This document shows positions 5,408-57,875 of a DNA stretch of 64,000 nucleotides, piece by piece; position 1 is the first letter of the stretch, and each line of letters opens with the position of its first letter. Made by a program: the position numbers and the translations under genes. The stretch is from Minisyncoccota bacterium (GTDB lineage Bacteria; Patescibacteriota; Minisyncoccia; Phycocordibacterales; UBA5272), in the NCBI GenBank assembly GCA_041651055.1, contig JBAZJW010000001.1, positions 691,702 to 755,701 of the forward strand, in the 5' to 3' direction. The notes under the pieces are model-generated. The model was not told where the DNA came from. It searched no databases and saw only the letters and a program-made list of their open reading frames with translations.

Positions 5408-5797
5408 ATGCTGGTACTCCTTTTAGTAATAAGTGGAATACTAGCCGCACTCTCTGCGGTGTCTATCCTTGTACTTCAAAGCTATAGTGTAGCTAAGGGG
5501 AGAGTGATTATTGATCCAGAGTACAACGGTCCTGCACAAGTCTCGACGACACTGCGTACGATTCTTCGCCTGCTTCTCAAGCGAAGTGTGTATATACGAA
5601 AATTTATTTTCCAGTATCTCGCACACTTGGCGGTGCGAGTTATGTTCTATGTGGATAAATTTTCTACATTCTTGTATGCCAAATCACGAAACTGGTTTGT
5701 GCAAAATGCCGTACGTAATCGTGGGACGGTGCCTCACTTTTGGGAGCACCTAAAGGTGTATAAGCAGGAAATGGACCGCGAAAAGGAAGAGGAATAA
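5408..5797 (+). CDS. Hypothetical membrane-anchored protein
   Basis: N-terminal TM helix, 129 aa, no known motif. Confidence 0.4.
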   Translation: MLVLLLVISGILAALSAVSILVLQSYSVAKGRVIIDPEYNGPAQVSTTLRTILRLLLKRSVYIRKFIFQYLAHLAVRVMFYVDKFSTFLYAKSRNWFVQNAVRNRGTVPHFWEHLKVYKQEMDREKEEE

Positions 5798-5798
5798 A

Positions 5799-5922
5799 GC
5801 CTGTTTCAAAATTGACGATCTGCTTGTTATTTTTAAGAAAAAGTGTTTCAACGTACACATTAGTACGTCTCCAAACTTTTTCTTAAAAACAACTGCGCAT
5901 CTCATTCAATTTTGAAACAGGC
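5799..5922. repeat. Intergenic element bounded by perfect 16-bp inverted repeat GCCTGTTTCAAAATTG / CAATTTTGAAACAGGC; internal motif shared with 98..215
   Basis: Arms at 5799..5814 and 5907..5922. The interior carries CCAAACTTTTTCTTAA..CTGCGCAT, which recurs at 103..137, plus hairpin CAACGTAC..GTACGTCTCC. Confidence 0.65.
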
Positions 5923-6042
5923 TTGCGTCGCACTTTTTTAATTAATAAGTACGCTCAACTAATCCTTTTGTTACAAGGATTTATTCTTTGTTATCATGGT
6001 GACAAAATTATAGAAATATGCTAAGATTAGGAGCGTGAATAA

Positions 6043-14977: not shown

Positions 14978-17065
<2,088 letters not shown>

Positions 17066-17254
17066 TTCGTCTAAAATAACCCATCTACTTTGTTGTGTTC
17101 GTCGCTCGCTCGTCAACGTACTCTTTCGTACGTCTCCTCGCTCGCTTCTCCACGCCGCGTAGCTGAGTCATTTTATACAAACTAGGGACCCCTGAATCCT
17201 GTGTCTCGCTTCTAAAACAATTTCTGACTTAGCTGGGTATCGTTGAAACTATTT

Positions 17255-17290
17255 TTAATTAAAAAAAGCGCCCATTTGCACGGGCGCTTG
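17255..17290 (-). terminator. Rho-independent terminator of the minus-strand gene 17305..17709
   Basis: Hairpin AGCGCCC-GTGCAAAT-GGGCGCT followed by T7 on the minus strand. Confidence 0.6.
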
Positions 17291-17304
17291 AAGGCGAGTC
17301 TTCT

Positions 17305-17709
17305 TTATTCCGAGGCGAGGATCTTGCCAATTCTTTTTTGATATTTCTCTACACGGGCCAAAAGTTTTTTACTCCCACCCGAGTTTAAACGTAAATAATC
17401 CATGGCAATTTTCACATCTTTCATTTGTGCTTTTTGCCAGGATGGATATATGCTTTTTGCGTGCTCAATCATCCACTGCTCCGTTTCATCTCCGATTCTT
17501 GTTCGGGCTGCAACAAGCTGTTGTGGATCAAATGGTGCCAGCACCTTGTCCAAGAGCTTAAGACACAGAATCATTTTTTCTGCCTTCTCTTTCCGCTTTG
17601 CTATAAATTTTGACACATACGACACACCCTCTAAAACGCAAAGGAAGAGAAGGGCAAGGATTGAAAGAACTACAACGACCGGATCGAATTGTATTAAACT
17701 TGTGTTCAC
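17305..17709 (-). CDS. Hypothetical membrane-anchored protein
   Basis: 134 aa, N-terminal TM helix, no known motif. Confidence 0.4.
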   Translation of the reverse strand: MNTSLIQFDPVVVVLSILALLFLCVLEGVSYVSKFIAKRKEKAEKMILCLKLLDKVLAPFDPQQLVAARTRIGDETEQWMIEHAKSIYPSWQKAQMKDVKIAMDYLRLNSGGSKKLLARVEKYQKRIGKILASE

Positions 17710-17829
17710 GATGAAACTCCTCTGGTTGGTTTATTTGAAACTACCACAATCGCTTAACATCGTCAACTGAACACTTTTACTTTTGTCTCTCATTGTAGTA
17801 GAGTGGTGGAGGATTTCTTTAACCCTCTA

Positions 17830-18545
17830 AAGGAGTAGAAAGTGACAATAATAGTTCTAGATAGTACAGGAGGCGAGGGTCTCAACGGGATTCTCATTGA
17901 AGTGTTGCCTGACACTCTCATCCTCACTCTCAGTACAGTCTTCCTTGATTCGTGGGGCGACGAACGAGATATTTGCCACCTTCTTGATGCTCTTGAGGGT
18001 GCGGCGGACGAGGTGCCGTGTGGCATTCGTTCCGATGGAAATAATCCAGTTAACCTTGTCATAGTGGACGATCGCCGTGAGCCCGTTCTTGGACTTGTCC
18101 AATCGCTTGCGCTAGGGCTTGGAGATCTTGGAGACTCCTCCGTTGGATTTATTTCGAAGAGACCAAGTCTCCATCCATACGGTCCACTAAAACATGGAAA
18201 GAAAGGAAAGGCAAAGAAATGGTGAAAACAATCTGTTCTTGTGGTGTATGCTGTGAACACCGGCCACCACAAACGTGCCGAATTTTGGCCGAACGTTCTG
18301 ACGAAGCAAGAAGAGGTGCGCTCCTTCAGCTTGGGGTTGAGTGCCACCTGCTGACCCTGTCAACTGAGATGGGGCAGCCTGTCATCCAGGCGACCCCTTC
18401 AGATCCCCATAACGGGGACTTCCACGATGAGGCTCTTCCTGCTTGGGGAGAGTCTGCCGTACCCGACATGCTCTGAAATATGTCCGTCCGTGAGCGCTTC
18501 AAGCTCAAATGCCTTCGAGACATCTCGTCGGCTTTTTTATTTGTA
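17830..18545 (+). other. GC-rich (~50%) 0.7 kb segment without credible CDS; candidate large structured ncRNA or decayed foreign gene, ending in a + strand terminator
   Basis: Only low-complexity Ser/Arg/Pro-rich or Leu/Asp/Gly-rich ORFs overlap on both strands; local stems (e.g. GGAGACT/AGTCTCC); terminator-like hairpin + T6 at about 18500..18545. Confidence 0.2.
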
Positions 18546-18548
18546 TCC

Positions 18549-18577
18549 TTGATATATAACGATTTTTATGGTATAAT
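18549..18577 (+). promoter_or_regulatory. Sigma70-type promoter TTGATA-N17-TATAAT with TGg extension; predicts a near-leaderless mRNA for the 18587 gene
   Basis: -35 18549..18554, -10 18572..18577; ATG at 18587, only about 9 nt after the -10. Confidence 0.6.
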
Positions 18578-18586
18578 GCACACCTC

Positions 18587-19105
18587 ATGAAATGGGTAAT
18601 TTTTACAGGGACATGGCGTCTCACGAATAAAGAAGTTGAGAATGATGTACGCCTCGCTGCAAGGCGGGTTTTTGAAAATGGTGATGGACTAGTCACGGGA
18701 GGTGCTACAGGAGTGGACTTTTTTGCCATGGATGAATTTGTAAAACTTAACCCAGAATGTACTCGTATACGTATTTTTATACCAGCACGACTACATCATT
18801 TTATTGATGACTATAAGAAAAACTGGAAGCATTTTCCAGTGTCAGATATGGACATCGAAAATCTCGATTATCTTTTACAATTGATTAAAGAGAGGAATCC
18901 AAGTGCTGTGTTTGAAGTGCGAAAAGACAGTGGAGACATCACACAGATAGAGTATGACCTACGTCACAATGAAGAAGTGACTTTTTCTGATGAAGTGTAT
19001 GCTTTCCACGTGAATTCAAGTACGGGCACTCACGATACTATTACCAAAGCACAAGCGGCAGGCCTTCCTGTGACATTGCATAAGAAATATATAATAGCGG
19101 AGTAG
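18587..19105 (+). CDS. Rossmann-fold SLOG/DprA-like (Smf-LOG superfamily) protein
   Basis: GLVTGGATGVDFFAMDEF resembles the DprA/LOG GxxxGxD nucleotide-binding motif; 172 aa; assignment tentative. Confidence 0.45.
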   Translation: MKWVIFTGTWRLTNKEVENDVRLAARRVFENGDGLVTGGATGVDFFAMDEFVKLNPECTRIRIFIPARLHHFIDDYKKNWKHFPVSDMDIENLDYLLQLIKERNPSAVFEVRKDSGDITQIEYDLRHNEEVTFSDEVYAFHVNSSTGTHDTITKAQAAGLPVTLHKKYIIAE

Positions 19106-19120
19106 GCGGTTTCCTTGTGA

Positions 19121-19149
19121 TTGACTCAACCTGTTTTTCGAGCTATAAT
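19121..19149 (+). promoter_or_regulatory. Consensus sigma70 promoter TTGACT-N17-TATAAT
   Basis: -35 19121..19126, -10 19144..19149, followed by AGGAG (19167..19171) and ATG 19177. Confidence 0.65.
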
Positions 19150-19176
19150 GACGACCTGTTCAAATTAGGAGACCCT

Positions 19177-19314
19177 ATGACCCCAGAAGTTCCGCCGACT
19201 CAGGTCGACAAACCCCTGGCTGAGCTGGTGGTTCAGGAGATACCACCGCACCAGCGCTCTCATCTGAACGATGAGAGAATTGCGCAAATGCAGATGCAGG
19301 CGCAACAACAATAG
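19177..19314 (+). CDS. Small protein (45 aa), unknown function, independently transcribed
   Basis: MTPEVPPTQVDKPLAELVVQEIPPHQRSHLNDERIAQMQMQAQQQ; consensus promoter, AGGAG RBS at 5-nt spacing, and terminator downstream. Confidence 0.45.
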   Translation: MTPEVPPTQVDKPLAELVVQEIPPHQRSHLNDERIAQMQMQAQQQ

Positions 19315-19336
19315 TCGCGGAGTAATCCACCGCGCA

Positions 19337-19366
19337 AGCCGCACCCTAAAAAGTGCGGCCTTTTTC
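19337..19366 (+). terminator. Rho-independent terminator
   Basis: GCCGCAC-CCTAAAAA-GTGCGGC followed by CTTTTTCTT. Confidence 0.6.
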
Positions 19367-19440
19367 TTGCATAGTTTTTCGAAAAAGCGTAGGATGAAAA
19401 CTGTTTTTACAACAATAGTTCTTTTTTAGAGAGGTTTTTT

Positions 19441-19971
19441 ATGTCAAATGTTTTGGCCAACGCAGACGCCGCCACGATGTTGTCCTTCCAAAAGGTGATT
19501 CTTATCGCCGGCGTATTCAATGATGCGCGTATCTCCGGCGCCGTTGAGGAAGAATTCATGATTCCCTCGCAGAGACTTCTCGTGAGAGCTTTTGCGGAAG
19601 TTCTCGGCGAAGAGTTTGTATTGTGTGAAGGTGAAATTCTAAATATCACACAAGATACAAACTTCCCACACGGCGCATCTGCTCAAATCCGCTTTGACTC
19701 AACCAGGAAGGTTGTAAACGTGAAGACGTCGAGGTATGAGCATTCATGGCTTTGCCTTCTGAAGTTCGATGTTTGGATAGACGTTACACCTCCCGGATCT
19801 GACCCGAGATGGCTTTCACCGGTGAAGTATTCCCCAGGTGGAGCTCGTCCAGCGTACAGAAAGTTGGACAAGAACAACGAAGCAACTAAGCCGAAGCAAA
19901 GTGACGTTCGCCGTCTTTCGCAGATACTCGATCATCTTTGGCAAGAGGCTATAGGTGAAGGTGTTGCATGA
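19441..19971 (+). CDS. Hypothetical protein (176 aa), GC-rich, ends in TGA
   Basis: No recognisable motif; followed by hairpin GCCGC-CCCCAAGGGA-GCGGC plus T6 at 19992..20019. Confidence 0.45.
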   Translation: MSNVLANADAATMLSFQKVILIAGVFNDARISGAVEEEFMIPSQRLLVRAFAEVLGEEFVLCEGEILNITQDTNFPHGASAQIRFDSTRKVVNVKTSRYEHSWLCLLKFDVWIDVTPPGSDPRWLSPVKYSPGGARPAYRKLDKNNEATKPKQSDVRRLSQILDHLWQEAIGEGVA

Positions 19972-20038
19972 CTTCTCACCTGATCGCAAAACGCCGCCCC
20001 CAAGGGAGCGGCATTTTTTATTCTTAACAGAGGAATTT

Positions 20039-25268: not shown

Positions 25269-25355
25269 GGAGGCGTCGCATAGTGGTCTAGTGCACTACC
25301 TTGGAAAGGTAGCAACGGGGTAACCTGTTCGAGAGTTCAAATCTCTCCGCCTCCG
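25269..25355 (+). tRNA. tRNA-Ser (anticodon GGA), long variable arm, discriminator G
   Basis: Hand fold: acceptor GGAGGCG/CGCCTCC, 3-bp D-stem with GG loop, anticodon stem CTACC/GGTAG with loop TTGGAAA, variable arm about 17 nt, T-arm GAGAG-TTCAAAT-CTCTC. Confidence 0.7.
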
Positions 25356-25384
25356 CTTTGAAAACAATCTGTTCTACTTTTTTT

Positions 25385-25441
25385 CGGAGAAAGGTAGCAA
25401 CGGGGTAACCTGTTCGAGAGTTCAAATCTCTCCGCCTCCGC
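25385..25441 (+). repeat. Direct duplicate of the 3' half of tRNA-Ser(GGA), starting inside the anticodon loop
   Basis: GGAGAAAGGTAGCAACGGGGTAACCTGTTCGAGAGTTCAAATCTCTCCGCCTCCGC is identical to the tRNA from the anticodon stem 3' strand to the 3' end. Confidence 0.75.
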
Positions 25442-25449
25442 AAAATCGC

Positions 25450-33676: not shown

Positions 33677-34110
33677 GTACACCATTCCAAGGCATGTGCG
33701 ATGTAGGAGATTGGATTTACACCGAAACGGTACGAGATCATTTTTTTCATCCGAGAAATATTTTGCTTGATGACAAAGAATATGTGGCAGACGGAATCGG
33801 TATTGCCGGTAGCCCATTGTGTGGAGATATGATGGCGGTGTGGATCAACGTAGATAACGAGAAGGGTGTCATCACGGAATGCAAGTGGCGCACCTTTGGG
33901 TGTGCTTCAGCAATAGCTTCGACGTCGATGATGTCAGTTATGGTGATGGAAAATGGAGGCATGACACTTGCCCGTGCAAAAAGAATTTCACCAGAAGCAA
34001 TTATCGAACGGCTAGGTGGACTTCCGGATAGGAAGTATCACTGCTCTGTGTTGGGGCATGAAGCTTTGCGCAAGGCTGTCGAGGACTATGAGTCGAACTT
34101 GCATACTTGA
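33673..34110 (+). CDS. iscU: Fe-S cluster assembly scaffold (IscU/NifU N-domain)
   Basis: Three conserved Cys (SPLCGD, FGCASA, HCS) in IscU spacing. Confidence 0.85.
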   Translation: MSTPFQGMCDVGDWIYTETVRDHFFHPRNILLDDKEYVADGIGIAGSPLCGDMMAVWINVDNEKGVITECKWRTFGCASAIASTSMMSVMVMENGGMTLARAKRISPEAIIERLGGLPDRKYHCSVLGHEALRKAVEDYESNLHT

Positions 34111-34223
34111 CGAGCTTCTTTGTTAAAGTCAAACTTTTATCGTTGCCGTACCAGTAAGTACGTCTTCTCAAAAAGTTTAACTTTGCCTCGAATCTCATTC
34201 AAGTCTTCAAGTCCTTAAAATAC

Positions 34224-34922
34224 ATGAATACAAATAATATATATAACGTCGAAGAGGTCATTCAAGAAACTTCAAATGTGTTTACTTTGAAGTTGTCGTG
34301 TGAGAGTGTCTTGCCCACATATAGAGCAGGACAATTTATTACGGTATTTTTTCCAGAGACAGGGCATGTTGAAGGAAAGAGTTATAGTATCTCAAGTGCG
34401 CCACATGAAAATCACGTACGTATCACCGTAAAAAGAATCGGAGAGTTTTCCAAGAGACTCACTTCAAAAAAAGTCGGTGACACAATAACGGCATCACTTC
34501 CATACGGCTACTTTTATTCTGAGTCAGAAACAAGTTCTCTGGTTATTATTACGGGTGGTATTGGCATCGCACCGTTTCGAAGTATGATTCTCGACTCACT
34601 AACAAAAAATCCACAGAGAAAAATTGTACTGTTGTATGCCAATAAAACTGTTGAGAGTATTATTTTCAAACAAGAGTTTGATGAGCTTGCAAAAAAACAT
34701 GAGGGAATTTTTACGGTACAGTATTACATCACACAAGAAACTGCTGGAGAAAACATGAAGCAGGGACGTATTCCTATTGAGCATGTTATCGAAGCATCTA
34801 AAAATCCCCCTGAAGCAGAATTTTTTATCTGTGGCTCTATTTCTTTTGTGCGCGGATATTGGAAAGGATTAAAAGATTCTGGTATTAAAGAAGAGACTAT
34901 ATATACTGAGGCTTTTTTCTAA
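34224..34922 (+). CDS. FAD/NAD(P)-binding oxidoreductase (ferredoxin-NADP reductase-like, PyrK/FNR fold)
   Basis: RAGQFITVFFPE..KSYSISS (FAD-binding) and GGIGIAPFRSM (NAD-binding) motifs. Confidence 0.7.
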   Translation: MNTNNIYNVEEVIQETSNVFTLKLSCESVLPTYRAGQFITVFFPETGHVEGKSYSISSAPHENHVRITVKRIGEFSKRLTSKKVGDTITASLPYGYFYSESETSSLVIITGGIGIAPFRSMILDSLTKNPQRKIVLLYANKTVESIIFKQEFDELAKKHEGIFTVQYYITQETAGENMKQGRIPIEHVIEASKNPPEAEFFICGSISFVRGYWKGLKDSGIKEETIYTEAFF

Positions 34923-41590: not shown

Positions 41591-43378
41591 ATGCAACAAG
41601 AAATTCGTAACATCGCCATTATCGCTCACGTGGACCATGGAAAGACCACGCTTACCGACGCACTCATGAAACAGTGTGGTGTTGGTGTTGAAGGTCAGAC
41701 AATGGACTCAAATCCAATGGAAAAGGAGCGTGGTATTACGATTACTGCCAAGAATACCTCGGTACCATACAAGGGTGTGAAGATTAACATTTTGGATACT
41801 CCTGGTCACGCGGACTTCGGCTCTGAAGTAGAGCGCGTACTAAGGTCAATTGACTGTGTGCTTCTTGTTGTTGATGCTCAGGAAGGTCCAATGCCTCAGA
41901 CACGTTTCGTTCTCAAGAAGTCACTTGAACTTGGTATTAAGCCGATTGTTGTTATTAATAAAATCGATAAACCAGCTGCTGATGCGAAGAAAGTGCACGA
42001 TGAAGTATTTGAACTTTTTATGGAACTTGGAGCAAACGATGAACAACTCGACTTCACCACGGTATACGCTATCGGACGTGAGGGTGTTGCGATGAAGAAT
42101 CTCGACGACGAACGAAAGGATCTCACACCGCTCCTTGATATTATTTTGGAAAAAGTTCCGAAGGCAACAGGAGACATCAATAGTCCGTTCGTGGCACAGG
42201 TGTTTAACCTTGCATATGATAATTTCCTCGGTCGTATGGCTATTTGTCGTGTGTATGACGGAGTTGCAAAAGTTGGTGAAGAAATTGTCGTAAAGAAAGC
42301 AACAGGCGAAACACGAAAGGGACGTATTACAAAGATGTATACCTTCAACGGTATCGCTCGTGTTGAGGCTCAAACTGCTGAAGCGGGAGATATTGTCATG
42401 GTTGCTGGATTTGCTGATATTTTCATCGGTGAGACATTTATTAAGAATGAAAGTCAGGAAGCTCTTCCTGCAATCCATATTGATGAACCAACTATCGCCC
42501 TTAACTTCCTTGTGAACGATTCTCCCTTTGCTGGAAAGGAAGGAAAGTTCGTAACGGGTCGTCAGATTCGTGACCGCCTCGAAAAAGAACTTGAGATCAA
42601 TGTCGGTCTTCATGTTGATTTTGAAATGGAAAAATTCTTGGTGTACGGTCGTGGTGAACTCCACATCGCTGTACTTCTCGAAACAATGCGTCGTGAAGGA
42701 TATGAACTTCAAGTGTCACAACCACAGGTTATTTTCCATGAAAAAGATGGTGTGAAAGAAGAGCCATATGAAGAACTTGTGATCGATGTACCGGTAGAGT
42801 CGTGTGGTATCGTGATGGAAAAGCTTGGACGTCGTAAAGCAATGATCGAAGACATGACTGAAAAGCATGGAGTGAATCGTATTAAGGCAACTATTCCTAC
42901 TCGAGGACTTCTCGGTTATCGTGGAGAATTCGTTATTGATACGAAAGGTCTTGGAATTCTTTCAGCACGTTTCAGTAAATTTGGTCCATACGCTGGTCCT
43001 ATCACTCGTCGCCTCGTTGGTTCTATGACATCGATGGCATCCGGCAAGTCTCTCGCATTCTCACTTTGGAATCTCCAGGATAGAGGTGTGATTTATATTC
43101 TTCCTACAACAGAAGTATACGAAGGTATGGTTATTGGTAACACATCAAAGGGTGAAGAAATGATGGTGAATCCGACAAAGGGTAAAGCGCTTTCAAACAT
43201 GCGTTCGTCAGGTGCAGATGAAGCTATCGTTCTCGTGCCTGCATGGGAAATCAGTATCGAACGCGGTCTTGAAATCATGAACGCTGATGAATATCTTGAA
43301 GTGACACCGAAGTCAGTGAGACTACGAAAGCAGTTGCTCACAGAATCAGATCGCGCAAAGGCTGGCCGTAAAGCATAA
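41591..43378 (+). CDS. typA: Translational GTPase TypA/BipA
   Basis: NIAIIAHVDHGKTTL G1, DTPGHADF G3, EF-G-like domains; 595 aa. Confidence 0.9.
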   Translation: MQQEIRNIAIIAHVDHGKTTLTDALMKQCGVGVEGQTMDSNPMEKERGITITAKNTSVPYKGVKINILDTPGHADFGSEVERVLRSIDCVLLVVDAQEGPMPQTRFVLKKSLELGIKPIVVINKIDKPAADAKKVHDEVFELFMELGANDEQLDFTTVYAIGREGVAMKNLDDERKDLTPLLDIILEKVPKATGDINSPFVAQVFNLAYDNFLGRMAICRVYDGVAKVGEEIVVKKATGETRKGRITKMYTFNGIARVEAQTAEAGDIVMVAGFADIFIGETFIKNESQEALPAIHIDEPTIALNFLVNDSPFAGKEGKFVTGRQIRDRLEKELEINVGLHVDFEMEKFLVYGRGELHIAVLLETMRREGYELQVSQPQVIFHEKDGVKEEPYEELVIDVPVESCGIVMEKLGRRKAMIEDMTEKHGVNRIKATIPTRGLLGYRGEFVIDTKGLGILSARFSKFGPYAGPITRRLVGSMTSMASGKSLAFSLWNLQDRGVIYILPTTEVYEGMVIGNTSKGEEMMVNPTKGKALSNMRSSGADEAIVLVPAWEISIERGLEIMNADEYLEVTPKSVRLRKQLLTESDRAKAGRKA

Positions 43379-43495
43379 ATTGCTTTATCTACTGCGTTAT
43401 AGAAAATTTTTCCTCCACGCGCCGTACCATATGTACGTCTTGGTCGTAAAAATTTTCTATGCCTTGTATCTAAAACAATTTCTGCCTTACGGTTC

Positions 43496-44026
43496 GTGTA
43501 TACTGTAAGAATGATACGAAAACTAAAAAAAGAAAAAAAGATTTTGTATGGCTCTATGGCCATACTTTTTCTTGTGCTTGGTTGGTATGGATATACGTGT
43601 GGTATACAAAAGACGTGTGGCAATCAAACTGTAGAGCGATTTGTTCGTCATGATATGGATATTGTTGCACCGCGTGGGACGATTGCCACTGAAGTGGTGG
43701 ACACTTCTGCTTCTCGTGCTCTTGGACTGTCTGGACGAAAGGGACTTGCTCCTAATGAAGGAATGTTGTTTGTCTTTGATGCTTCTGGACGCTATGGTTT
43801 TTGGATGAAAGATATGCTGTTTCCTCTTGATATTATCTGGATAAATCAAAGCGGTGTTGTTGTTCATATTGAAAGAGATGTTACCCCAGAATCATACACA
43901 GGATCAAAAGAGAATCCGAAAACATTTATCAATACACCGGACGCTCTCTATGTGCTTGAAATCAATACCGGAAAAGCAGAGGAGTATGGGTTATATTTGG
44001 GATCAAAAGTAAAACTAGAGAAGTAG
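43496..44026 (+). CDS. DUF192-family protein
   Basis: GMLFVFD...FWMKDMLFPLDIIWI matches the DUF192 core. Confidence 0.65.
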   Translation: MYTVRMIRKLKKEKKILYGSMAILFLVLGWYGYTCGIQKTCGNQTVERFVRHDMDIVAPRGTIATEVVDTSASRALGLSGRKGLAPNEGMLFVFDASGRYGFWMKDMLFPLDIIWINQSGVVVHIERDVTPESYTGSKENPKTFINTPDALYVLEINTGKAEEYGLYLGSKVKLEK

Positions 44027-45221: not shown

Positions 45222-45610
45222 TCCATATGTTCTCTGTCTATAAGCCGAATTCTGTTTTTGTGTAGACATGTATCTAGCTCGTTAATTGCTCAATGAGTCA
45301 AGCGACACTCCCGTATTACTACGGGCACGGTCTTGCACACACGTATGTATTTAGCCGTTTCAGCCGGACTAAACCGGATCGTTTCTGTTCGCAACACGGT
45401 GGTCACCCACGACGGGCATTACCCGCTACGCTTCCAATTTTGCCCACCAGAGGTGGCTGCAAAATTGAGAATCCTGAGCTTGTCGAAGGATAGTCCCTCA
45501 ACTTCGTTCGGGACACTCAATTCTGCAACTGCCTATGGCAGGCAGAATTGGTGTGTGTTCGGACTTTCCTCACGATATTACTATCGCGCGTCTACCCAAC
45601 AAAGAACAAA
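45222..45610 (-). ncRNA. rnpB: RNase P RNA, bacterial type A
   Basis: Minus-strand read gives P3 hairpin CGCGAUA-GUAA-UAUCGUG followed by P4 5' strand GAGGAAAGUCCGAAC. Downstream come CCAUAGGCAG and GCGGGUAAUGCCCG. The 3' part CUAGAUACAUGUCUACACAAAAACAGAAUUCGGCUUAUAG parallels E. coli CUAGAUGAAUGACUGUCCACGACAGAACCCGGCUUAUCGG. P1 pairs UGUUCUUUGU with ACAGAGAACA. The ends are approximate. Confidence 0.8.
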
Positions 45611-53463: not shown

Positions 53464-53594
53464 AATGTATATATCGATTTAGTCAGAAATTGTCCTAGAT
53501 GCTAGGCGTGGGAAAAGTTTTGTCGGAGACGTACGAATAGTACGTTGACTGAAAAACTTGGGGCCCACAACAACGCAGATGGGATAATTTATGG

Positions 53595-54143
53595 CTAAAT
53601 ACTCTTTACTTTCAATTTCGTTTGACGTGCCTTATCCACCTTCGGTAATCTAATGATAAGCAATCCATGTTTCTCGACTGCCTCGGCTTCTTCGATCTCT
53701 ACTTCATGTGGAAGGAGAATCGTACGAGTGAACGTTCCCCAATAGAGCTCCTTGTAGAAATAATCATCGTGAGTCACCTGTGTGTTGCCATCGCGACGTC
53801 CTTTAATGGTAACCATATCGCGTGTAATAGAAAGATGAAGGTCTTCTGGTTTTACACCAGCGACCATGGCTTCAATGATAATTTCACTTGGTGTCTGATA
53901 CACGTCGACAGAAAGTTCTCCCTCTTCTAGATCAGGATCAACTTCTTCCATATCTTCATCGAGACTAATATGTCGTGCCTTTGGGCGAGTTGCAGGTACT
54001 TCTGCTTTTTTACCTACATGCTTGATAGGCACTTCCTCCATGTCTTCGTCATCTTCTTGTACGAAGTCAACCTGATCGTCTTCATCGTCAACACTTATTG
54101 AACCAGCGAGACGTTCGAAGAATGATTTTTTTTCTTTAAGCAT
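53595..54143 (-). CDS. Small heat-shock protein (Hsp20/alpha-crystallin) with acidic N-terminal extension
   Basis: Alpha-crystallin domain (..TILLPHEVEIEEAEAVEKHGLLIIRLPK). Confidence 0.8.
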   Translation of the reverse strand: MLKEKKSFFERLAGSISVDDEDDQVDFVQEDDEDMEEVPIKHVGKKAEVPATRPKARHISLDEDMEEVDPDLEEGELSVDVYQTPSEIIIEAMVAGVKPEDLHLSITRDMVTIKGRRDGNTQVTHDDYFYKELYWGTFTRTILLPHEVEIEEAEAVEKHGLLIIRLPKVDKARQTKLKVKSI

Positions 54144-57568: not shown

Positions 57569-57601
57569 AAATCACCCGCTCCCACGGGTGATTTATTTTT
57601 T
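57569..57601 (+). terminator. Rho-independent terminator after the KA-rich gene
   Basis: ATCACCCG-CTCCCA-CGGGTGAT followed by TTATTTTTT. Confidence 0.7.
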
Positions 57602-57875
57602 CTGGGCATAATCATCTCATTTGCTTCGTTGGGTAATATTTTTTCTCCCGCAATGTACTATTCGTACATCTTGGTCGAAAAAATATTACCCGCCTTGCAA
57701 CTAAGACAATTTCTGCCCAGAAATTTTCGAATAAAATCATTCCATAAACAATGACGGTCATTGTTTTTTTGAATATTGAATATTGTCTCCATTATATATT
57801 CCACTCTTTCTTTCTTATTTTGTTCTCTCTAAAAATGAAGGCAAAAGCTTGTAAATATGCTATAATCTATCAACT

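Follow-up and report, generated by a model that had tools for sequence, protein, structure and literature searches.

A GC-rich, seemingly gene-less stretch downstream of gyrB in a Candidatus Paceibacterota genome as the probable transcription unit of an orphan gene

What does a bacterial genome carry in a GC-rich stretch of DNA that appears to hold no gene? We examined this question at positions 17830-18545 of a 64-kb stretch (hereafter the window) from a metagenome-assembled genome of Candidatus Paceibacterota (Candidate Phyla Radiation (CPR)/Patescibacteria). An earlier note on this DNA had seen no credible gene here and had proposed either a large non-coding RNA (ncRNA), possibly of the OLE, GOLLD, ROOL or HEARO kind, or an eroded foreign gene. 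Our analysis points elsewhere. The stretch is most likely the transcription unit of a lineage-restricted gene, situated on 1.5 kb of accessory DNA between gyrB and a conserved gene of 172 amino acids (aa). In its full form, which we favour with moderate confidence, this reading joins an orphan protein gene, preceded by its own Shine-Dalgarno (SD) sequence, to a long tail that is structured and untranslated and ends in an intrinsic terminator, all borne on a horizontally acquired two-gene cassette. The local order is two Mur-ligase genes, gyrB (14990-17065), a 134-aa gene on the minus strand, the GC-rich stretch, the 172-aa gene, a 176-aa gene, thrS (minus strand), LemA and M48. Two independent assemblies, an ENA k141 contig (212 kb) and a Logan contig (19 kb), are 100% identical to the window over ~11.5 kb around the site, so 17830-18545 is not a misassembly or chimera. 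These assemblies derive from ERZ27247363 and SRR8542065.

The compositional anomaly that first drew attention to the locus is real. GC content across 17830-18545 is 51.0%, compared with a window mean of 41.2% (standard deviation (sd) 4.3% for 300-nucleotide (nt) windows); only 0.08% of 716-nt windows reach 51.0%, and every one of them overlaps the stretch itself. The most GC-rich 300 nt of the window (55%) lie at 18251-18550. Long open reading frames (ORFs) occupy both strands, as had been described: a 185-aa frame on the minus strand (17790..18347; Ser 16%, Arg 12%, Pro 10%), a 127-aa frame on the plus strand (17842..18225; Leu 16%, Gly 13%, Asp 9%) and an 81-aa minus-strand frame (17857..18102) that begins with TTG directly after a TAG. 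Stop-free frames in the region exceed those of shuffled sequences, with P ~0.009 for the longest and ~0.008 for the second longest. We divide the stretch into the following parts:

17830..17835, plus strand: Shine-Dalgarno sequence AAGGAG, 6 nt ahead of a GTG, with an anti-SD duplex of -8.3 kcal/mol
17842..18225, plus strand: 127-codon ORF, GTG to TGA, marked by three-base periodicity, codon score and SD, and called by three annotation pipelines (NCBI, ENA and Logan)
18226..18510, plus strand: non-coding tail of consecutive hairpins, ~54% GC, without three-base periodicity (p 0.52)
18511..18542, plus strand: predicted intrinsic terminator, GCC..CGAG-ACAU-CUCG..GGC followed by UUUUUUAUUU (-10.3 kcal/mol, z -3.0)

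The 127-codon ORF carries the signals of a protein-coding gene. Three-base periodicity is strong across 17842-18225 (chi2 29.2, p 5.6e-5), and the genes on either side show it too (p 4.7e-6 for the 172-aa gene, 0.005 for the 134-aa gene); it is absent from two non-coding controls, the RNase P RNA (p 0.93) and the spacer after gyrB (p 0.94). We then scored codon usage with a model that was trained on 47 long ORFs in the window, with a correction for the base composition of each ORF. At 0.184 per codon, the 127-aa ORF falls at the 25th percentile of host genes (0.243 +/- 0.098, leave-one-out) and exceeds every one of the 59 shadow ORFs with 80 aa or more (-0.197 +/- 0.103, maximum 0.001). A sliding, frame-specific version of the score is positive in this frame only, from 17842 to ~18200. 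GC at the three codon positions is 0.66/0.41/0.41 versus 0.52/0.36/0.35 in host genes, and third-position base composition is near that of the host. The high GC of the 5' half therefore stems from the amino acids of the protein, whose Gly, Asp, Leu, Val and Glu codons raise GC at the first position (GC1). Few sites match the SD duplex ahead of the GTG in strength: it ranks in the top 2.4% relative to random positions and in the top 2% relative to host gene starts. The translation, which includes MTIIVLDSTGGEGLNGILIEVLPD..., already stands in GenBank as MFA5132402.1, 'hypothetical protein WC444_03710', with consecutive locus tags on either side (WC444_03705, 134 aa, minus strand; WC444_03715, 172 aa, plus strand). 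Judged from the DNA, 17842..18225 is probably a real orphan protein gene that would be translated. The claim that the stretch holds no credible gene thus fails for this segment, where periodicity, codon score and a strong SD coincide. Nor does it look eroded, given that the 127-codon frame is intact and that translated searches detected no frameshifted known gene.

The minus-strand frames, in turn, appear to be by-products. The 81-aa ORF lies antisense to the 127-aa ORF and exactly in register with it, and both it and the 185-aa ORF score among the shadows (-0.186 and -0.326, respectively). In the 185-aa ORF, GC at the second codon position (GC2) is well above GC1, which is not a pattern of real genes. 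On these sequence measures, the 81-aa and 185-aa ORFs behave like antisense shadows. The 185-aa frame and a further minus-strand frame of 65 aa gave no match in Pfam, the collection against which they were scanned.

One feature of the 127-aa frame raised the possibility of recoding. All three of its stops (18223, 18367 and 18550) are TGA, the rarest stop in the genome (4 of 47 long ORFs), and an 11-bp hairpin begins 15 nt past the first. We consider selenocysteine insertion, read-through and an alternative code unlikely: TGA does serve as the stop in 4 of 47 host genes, coding character is lost from the score past 18230, and ARAGORN identified no tRNA-Sec.

Several observations weigh against a functional orphan gene at this site. 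A search of 5.8 billion clusters returned the 127-aa ORF itself as the sole match, leaving it without a real homologue. In amino-acid composition it stands apart, with a mean |z| of 1.31 where the 95th percentile of host proteins is 1.14, and the AlphaFold single-sequence model is of low confidence (predicted local distance difference test (pLDDT) score 41.5). The gap of 290 nt between stop and terminator is unusually long. Upstream, the divergent intergenic region offers no good promoter: two hexamer pairs picked by eye within 17710-17841, TTTACT-17-TAGAGT on the plus strand (~17777-17805) and TTGACG-17-TAGTTT on the minus strand, both fell short of the promoter-scan threshold. The SD at 17830 argues for foreign origin rather than host-type expression. 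The tests also have a directional limit. Periodicity alone does not separate the plus frame from its in-register antisense, and the shadow control was drawn from host genes rather than from foreign genes rich in GC at the third codon position (GC3), which biases it against a minus-strand reading. Assignment of the coding signal to the plus strand rests on the codon model and the SD.

This limit opens the way to a different account, which places the coding signal on the minus strand. A GC-richer donor would have supplied a gene of which the 81-aa ORF and the open stretch upstream of its TAG are what is left, and the whole 0.7 kb would be decaying and functionless. The minus frame has a GC3 of 0.72 and purine-rich first positions, as expected of a gene from such a donor; it is broken by the TAG and open again upstream, and the region is an insertion missing from relatives. 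The 81-aa translation is protein-like, with a pLDDT (53.2) slightly above that of the plus ORF, and the excess of stop-free frames over shuffles can be counted in its favour. However, GC1 in the minus frame is only 0.46, low for such a GC3, and the TTG start lacks an SD (dG +0.3). The 81-aa translation found no homologue in the word-indexed search of 5.8 billion clusters, nor in Pfam, PHROGs, NCBIfam, PADLOC, plasmids or the PDB. The plus ORF, by contrast, is intact across the entire periodic zone and has a strong, well-placed SD. We hold the decaying minus-strand remnant to be doubtful.

Searches for relatives returned no real homologue. The 127-aa, 81-aa and 85-aa frames (the last lies in the tail) have no matches in Pfam, PHROGs, NCBIfam or PADLOC, and the 127-aa and 81-aa translations returned nothing from the PDB or, by tblastn, from plasmids. 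Back-translated pattern scans of JGI metagenome contigs and IMG/VR were likewise empty. An exhaustive HMMER search of 1.84 billion representatives added three matches to the 127-aa ORF, which we dismissed as artefacts; they are tandem-repeat proteins with summed weak matches. Protein-cluster 'variants' of the ORF differ solely in the letter, M or V, that stands for the GTG start. No homologues under purifying selection were found for the 127-aa ORF, only the sequence itself, and the other assemblies provided no diverged strain variants for substitution analysis, all being 100% identical. At the DNA level, the stretch has no match in phages or plasmids, and 17710-18586 resembles nothing in 82 related gyrB loci (~1.05 Mb; blastn, tblastx and nhmmer). 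As a check, the earlier note had proposed a translated search for a decayed gene; our translated searches revealed no known family or frameshifted gene in the databases covered.

Could the stretch instead be RNA? We ran the other proposed check, an Infernal scan of 17600-18700 on both strands against the 4,227 families of Rfam 15, raiA, 6S, SRP and the group I and II introns among them, and obtained 0 matches at E<=10 and none at gathering score. The RNase P RNA of the same genome served as positive control and was found at E 1.5e-23. It lies at 45225-45607 on the minus strand, away from the stretch, as the earlier note had said; the note's exclusion of a transfer-messenger RNA (tmRNA) was also correct, with ARAGORN reporting five tRNAs and 0 tmRNA in the window and Rfam giving no tmRNA match. 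The RNase P RNA (bacterial class A) fits its full-length model at 77.7 bits, below the Rfam gathering score of 100, so a default scan misses it. Divergent CPR RNAs can thus fall under curated Rfam thresholds.

That the whole 0.7 kb is a single large ncRNA of the OLE, GOLLD, ROOL or HEARO kind is highly improbable. The locus does share the signature by which such RNAs are nominated: it is GC-rich, seemingly poor in genes, set in a lower-GC genome and closed at the 3' end by a terminator. Its fold as a whole has z -2.4 (plus strand) and -3.2 (minus strand). RNAs of these classes are defined by conservation and covariation. The stretch, in contrast, has neither an Rfam match at E<=10 nor homologues, hence no covariation, and shows no conservation across the 82 related loci. 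Its first 384 nt carry coding periodicity and fold no better than shuffles (z +0.7). For the 5' half, the large-ncRNA reading is contradicted; positive support for it is lacking overall.

The tail is a different matter. The last 320 nt of the stretch (18226-18545) have no periodicity, and the 85-aa ORF that they contain (18219..18476) has a shadow-like codon score of -0.229. This segment folds as a chain of hairpins with a minimum free energy of -116 kcal/mol (z -3.3), a stability reached by 0 of 100 shuffles, and its strongest local hairpins span 18366-18425 (z -4.1). The z-score is equal on the opposite strand (-3.3), however, and when 100 ordinary 320-nt windows from this genome are scored (mean -0.75, sd 2.1), the tail ranks only at their 9th percentile; by the same measure, the RNase P RNA has -5.4. 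The earlier impression of many local stems accordingly stands, at most weakly, for these last 320 nt and not for the ORF part. The tail is most likely a passive 3' untranslated region (UTR), or a relic of sequence that arrived with the cassette.

It is unlikely, in our estimate, that the tail is instead a functional structured RNA carried by the cassette, whether a 3'-UTR-derived or independent small RNA or a cis element. Such a role would suit the most GC-rich 300 nt of the window (0.55), a segment in which a periodic signal and a credible ORF are both missing, in which no shuffle matches the observed stability, and which couples strong local hairpins with a proper terminator. The sub-threshold score of the genome's own RNase P RNA makes divergent RNAs plausible here. 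Against this, Rfam is silent even at E<=10, the fold z-score is equal on the two strands and only at the 9th percentile of ordinary windows, and the promoter scan gave no promoter for the tail. Homologues were found in none of the collections searched, the tail is absent from every relative examined, and descriptors of its hairpins matched nothing in IMG/VR viral or JGI metagenome contigs.

We also weighed whether the tail is the second half of a gene. A former gene of ~210 codons might have been split by a frameshift in the A-rich tract 18196-18219, as a pseudogene, an assembly error or programmed slippage; the 127-aa frame would then run on in the frame of the 85-aa ORF to the TGA at 18474-18476, ~35 nt ahead of the terminator hairpin. 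No stop interrupts the 85-aa frame over 128 codons (~18093 to 18476), an open run that reaches back into the last part of the 127-aa ORF, and 0.8% of shuffles yield two stop-free frames of such length. The 127-aa ORF ends in ATGGTGA, where its TGA is overlapped by the ATG at 18219, and a stop at 18476 is a normal distance from the terminator. Yet the 85-aa frame is non-coding by codon score and periodicity, its composition is odd (Cys 7%, Pro 8%), and the family searches described above yielded no homologue for it. Assembly error is opposed by the identity of the independent assemblies, and a canonical slippery heptamer was not present on reading the sequence. We regard a split gene as very unlikely.

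We return to an orphan gene with a long untranslated tail, and to how its unit would end. The earlier note had recorded a plus-strand hairpin with a T-run at the 3' end, and both are there: the hairpin occupies 18511-18532, UUUUUUAUUU follows directly 3', and 0 of 200 shuffles were equally stable. A simple terminator scan missed it because the stem has an internal 2x2 mismatch. The element resembles an intrinsic terminator in its G+C-containing hairpin and U-run and in its position at the end of a plus-strand unit, before the next promoter; it differs in the mismatched stem, and it is known here as a prediction. In the mechanism that we propose, transcription would start in the divergent region 17710-17841, where promoter matches are weak. 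Ribosomes recruited by AAGGAG (17830-17835) would then read 127 codons, beginning with the GTG at 17842, up to the TGA at 18223. The transcript would run on through the 320-nt GC-rich, hairpin-rich tail and stop at 18511-18542, and the tail would insulate the downstream gene and may stabilise the mRNA.

The surroundings of this predicted unit comprise the following features:

17057..17197, plus strand: copy of a hairpin repeat that starts from the gyrB stop codon, at the left edge of the variable interval (covariance model R1, 91.9 bits, E 6.6e-18)
17266..17289, minus strand: intrinsic terminator hairpin of the 134-aa gene (terminator scan, 10 pairs and a T-run; -15.4 kcal/mol)
17305..17709, minus strand: 134-aa orphan gene WC444_03705, with a hydrophobic N-terminal segment (codon score 0.181; GenBank)
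17710..17841, no strand assigned: divergent intergenic region with weak promoter-like hexamers, identified by eye
18549..18577, plus strand: promoter of the 172-aa gene, TTGATA-17-TATAAT with a TG (promoter scan, 11 of 12 positions)

The divergent partner of the 127-aa ORF, the 134-aa gene, likewise has a strong SD (AGAGGAG, dG -8.5 kcal/mol), and its protein has no family match in Pfam, PHROGs, NCBIfam or PADLOC. The host itself shows no SD enrichment: among 49 long ORFs, the motif precedes 10% of starts versus 9% of random positions, and N-terminal zones are no different from internal control zones. Strong SDs on both ORFs of the insert (-8.5 and -8.3 kcal/mol) in such a host point to a foreign origin of the two-gene module. 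On the right, the promoter at 18549-18577 ends 9 nt ahead of the ATG at 18587 and marks the edge of the inserted DNA. The 172-aa gene that it serves (to 19105) combines this near-consensus promoter with the lack of an SD, and its mRNA is therefore probably leaderless or nearly so. The gene resembles DprA/SLOG only weakly (Pfam E 0.063; PHROG 'GTP-binding domain' E 1.4e-4).

Comparison with relatives supports the accessory nature of the module. GyrB homologues at 66-90% identity led to 80 loci from GTDB species representatives, and contigs reached via the protein database were added to these. The 172-aa gene is kept downstream of gyrB in seven relatives. The gap between gyrB and the 172-aa homologue is only 9-86 nt in four of them (loci L013, L012, L021 and L014), and in the other three (L007, L037 and L008) it carries unrelated cargo, namely membrane-type ORFs of 251 aa and 154 aa and a 150-aa ORF. 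In the window, the gap measures 1,521 nt and holds the hairpin repeat, the 134-aa gene, the GC-rich stretch and the promoter. Given relatives with a short gap or other cargo, these 1,521 nt represent strain-specific accessory DNA in a variable hot-spot. The suspicion of foreign DNA is thus supported by a 1.5-kb insertion missing in several relatives and by strong SDs; the eroded known gene that went with it was not detected. Marks of a transposable element or miniature inverted-repeat transposable element were also sought, and the stretch and insert have no terminal inverted repeats, flanking direct repeats, tandem repeats or mobility gene.

More broadly, the whole interval from gyrB to thrS (17066-20038 in the window; compared in L003, L005, L007, L008, L012-L014, L021 and L037) is variable, and the flanking order is conserved: Mur ligases (murC/murD-type) and gyrB on one side; thrS, LemA and M48 on the other. 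Its cargo in relatives ranges from SnoaL-like, bestrophin-like or membrane-type ORFs and other small orphan ORFs to almost nothing. In L003 (10097-10267) and L004, a 58-aa ORF homologous to the C-terminus of the 172-aa protein is all that remains after gyrB.

The repeat at the left edge of the interval belongs to a dispersed family of ~140-nt hairpins, of which the window contains seven copies: five more on the plus strand at 2058-2193, 5789-5935, 34090-34229, 43363-43501 and 57596-57732, and one on the minus strand at 53464-53604, in addition to 17057-17197 (plus strand). Model R1 found no copy within 17830-18545. Three of the four copies whose gene context was checked start at the stop codon of the upstream gene and in the same orientation, the genes being gyrB, a 595-aa ORF ending at 43378 and a 182-aa ORF ending at 53595. 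Orthologous copies follow gyrB in six relatives (L037 1836-1975, L020 2539-2679, L007 9074-9214, L006 2172-2306, L008 8389-8530 and L027 9078-9220). The repeat is present in all relatives with cargo after gyrB and absent in relatives without cargo.

The repeat folds into a long hairpin in which several boxes are conserved, CTACTTTGTYG, GTCAATGTAC-loop-GTACATCTC, CGCCnCGTATCT and CAATTTCTGACTTA, and with a 12-14-bp stem of A/T runs that differs in every copy yet remains complementary. Across 12 copies, 89.7% of cells are paired, compared with 64.9 +/- 1.7% in shuffles and 34-55% in slid controls, and compensatory changes occur at 22 of 28 pairs, compared with 14.3 +/- 1.9 in shuffles. No Rfam family matches the repeat at gathering score anywhere in the window, and the gyrB copy gave nothing relevant at E<=10. 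Candidate functions are that of a terminator or 3'-UTR element and that of a recombination site. A further proposal ties it to the tail: the tail, alone or as a dual-function transcript with the ORF, would be a structured RNA confined to its lineage, the mobile cassette bearing it would insert beside the gyrB hairpin repeat, and the repeat would mark a hot-spot of cassette exchange. We think this quite unlikely.

A second side observation concerns the junction between the 127-aa ORF and the tail. The only repeated DNA of the stretch within the window is a 17-mer, TGAAAACAATCTGTTCT, identical at 18223-18239 and 25359-25375, where ~0.01 such matches are expected in the window. The distant copy sits in an unusual setting. 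A tRNA-Ser(GGA) at 25269-25356 is followed by a 37-nt spacer, which contains the 17-mer, and then by an exact 49-nt duplicate of the 3' half of the tRNA (25394-25442), an arrangement that looks like a scar of integration or excision. The 17-mer also had 32 matches in viral contigs, all without extended similarity; we set these aside as chance matches. Its sharing between the tail junction and the tRNA-Ser scar may be chance.

The closest parallels to the locus are the ORFan genes of variable islets in CPR genomes. Like them, it presents a small, homologue-less 'hypothetical protein' ORF in an interval that varies among relatives between core flanks of constant order, with composition and translation signals off the host norm. 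It differs in the unusually long, ~290-nt GC-rich and hairpin-rich untranslated DNA that trails the ORF, and in that the search for a mobility gene, terminal inverted repeats and a target duplication came up empty.

Together, these results indicate that a GC-rich, seemingly gene-less stretch of a CPR genome can be a plain orphan gene, whose amino acids lift GC1 and whose antisense shadows supply the implausible ORFs. Such a stretch should be put forward as a large-ncRNA candidate only with expression or comparative data in hand; in this neighbourhood, the strongly covarying hairpin repeat is the more promising lead. The stretch itself would be one more strain-specific cassette in the Paceibacterota hot-spot after gyrB.

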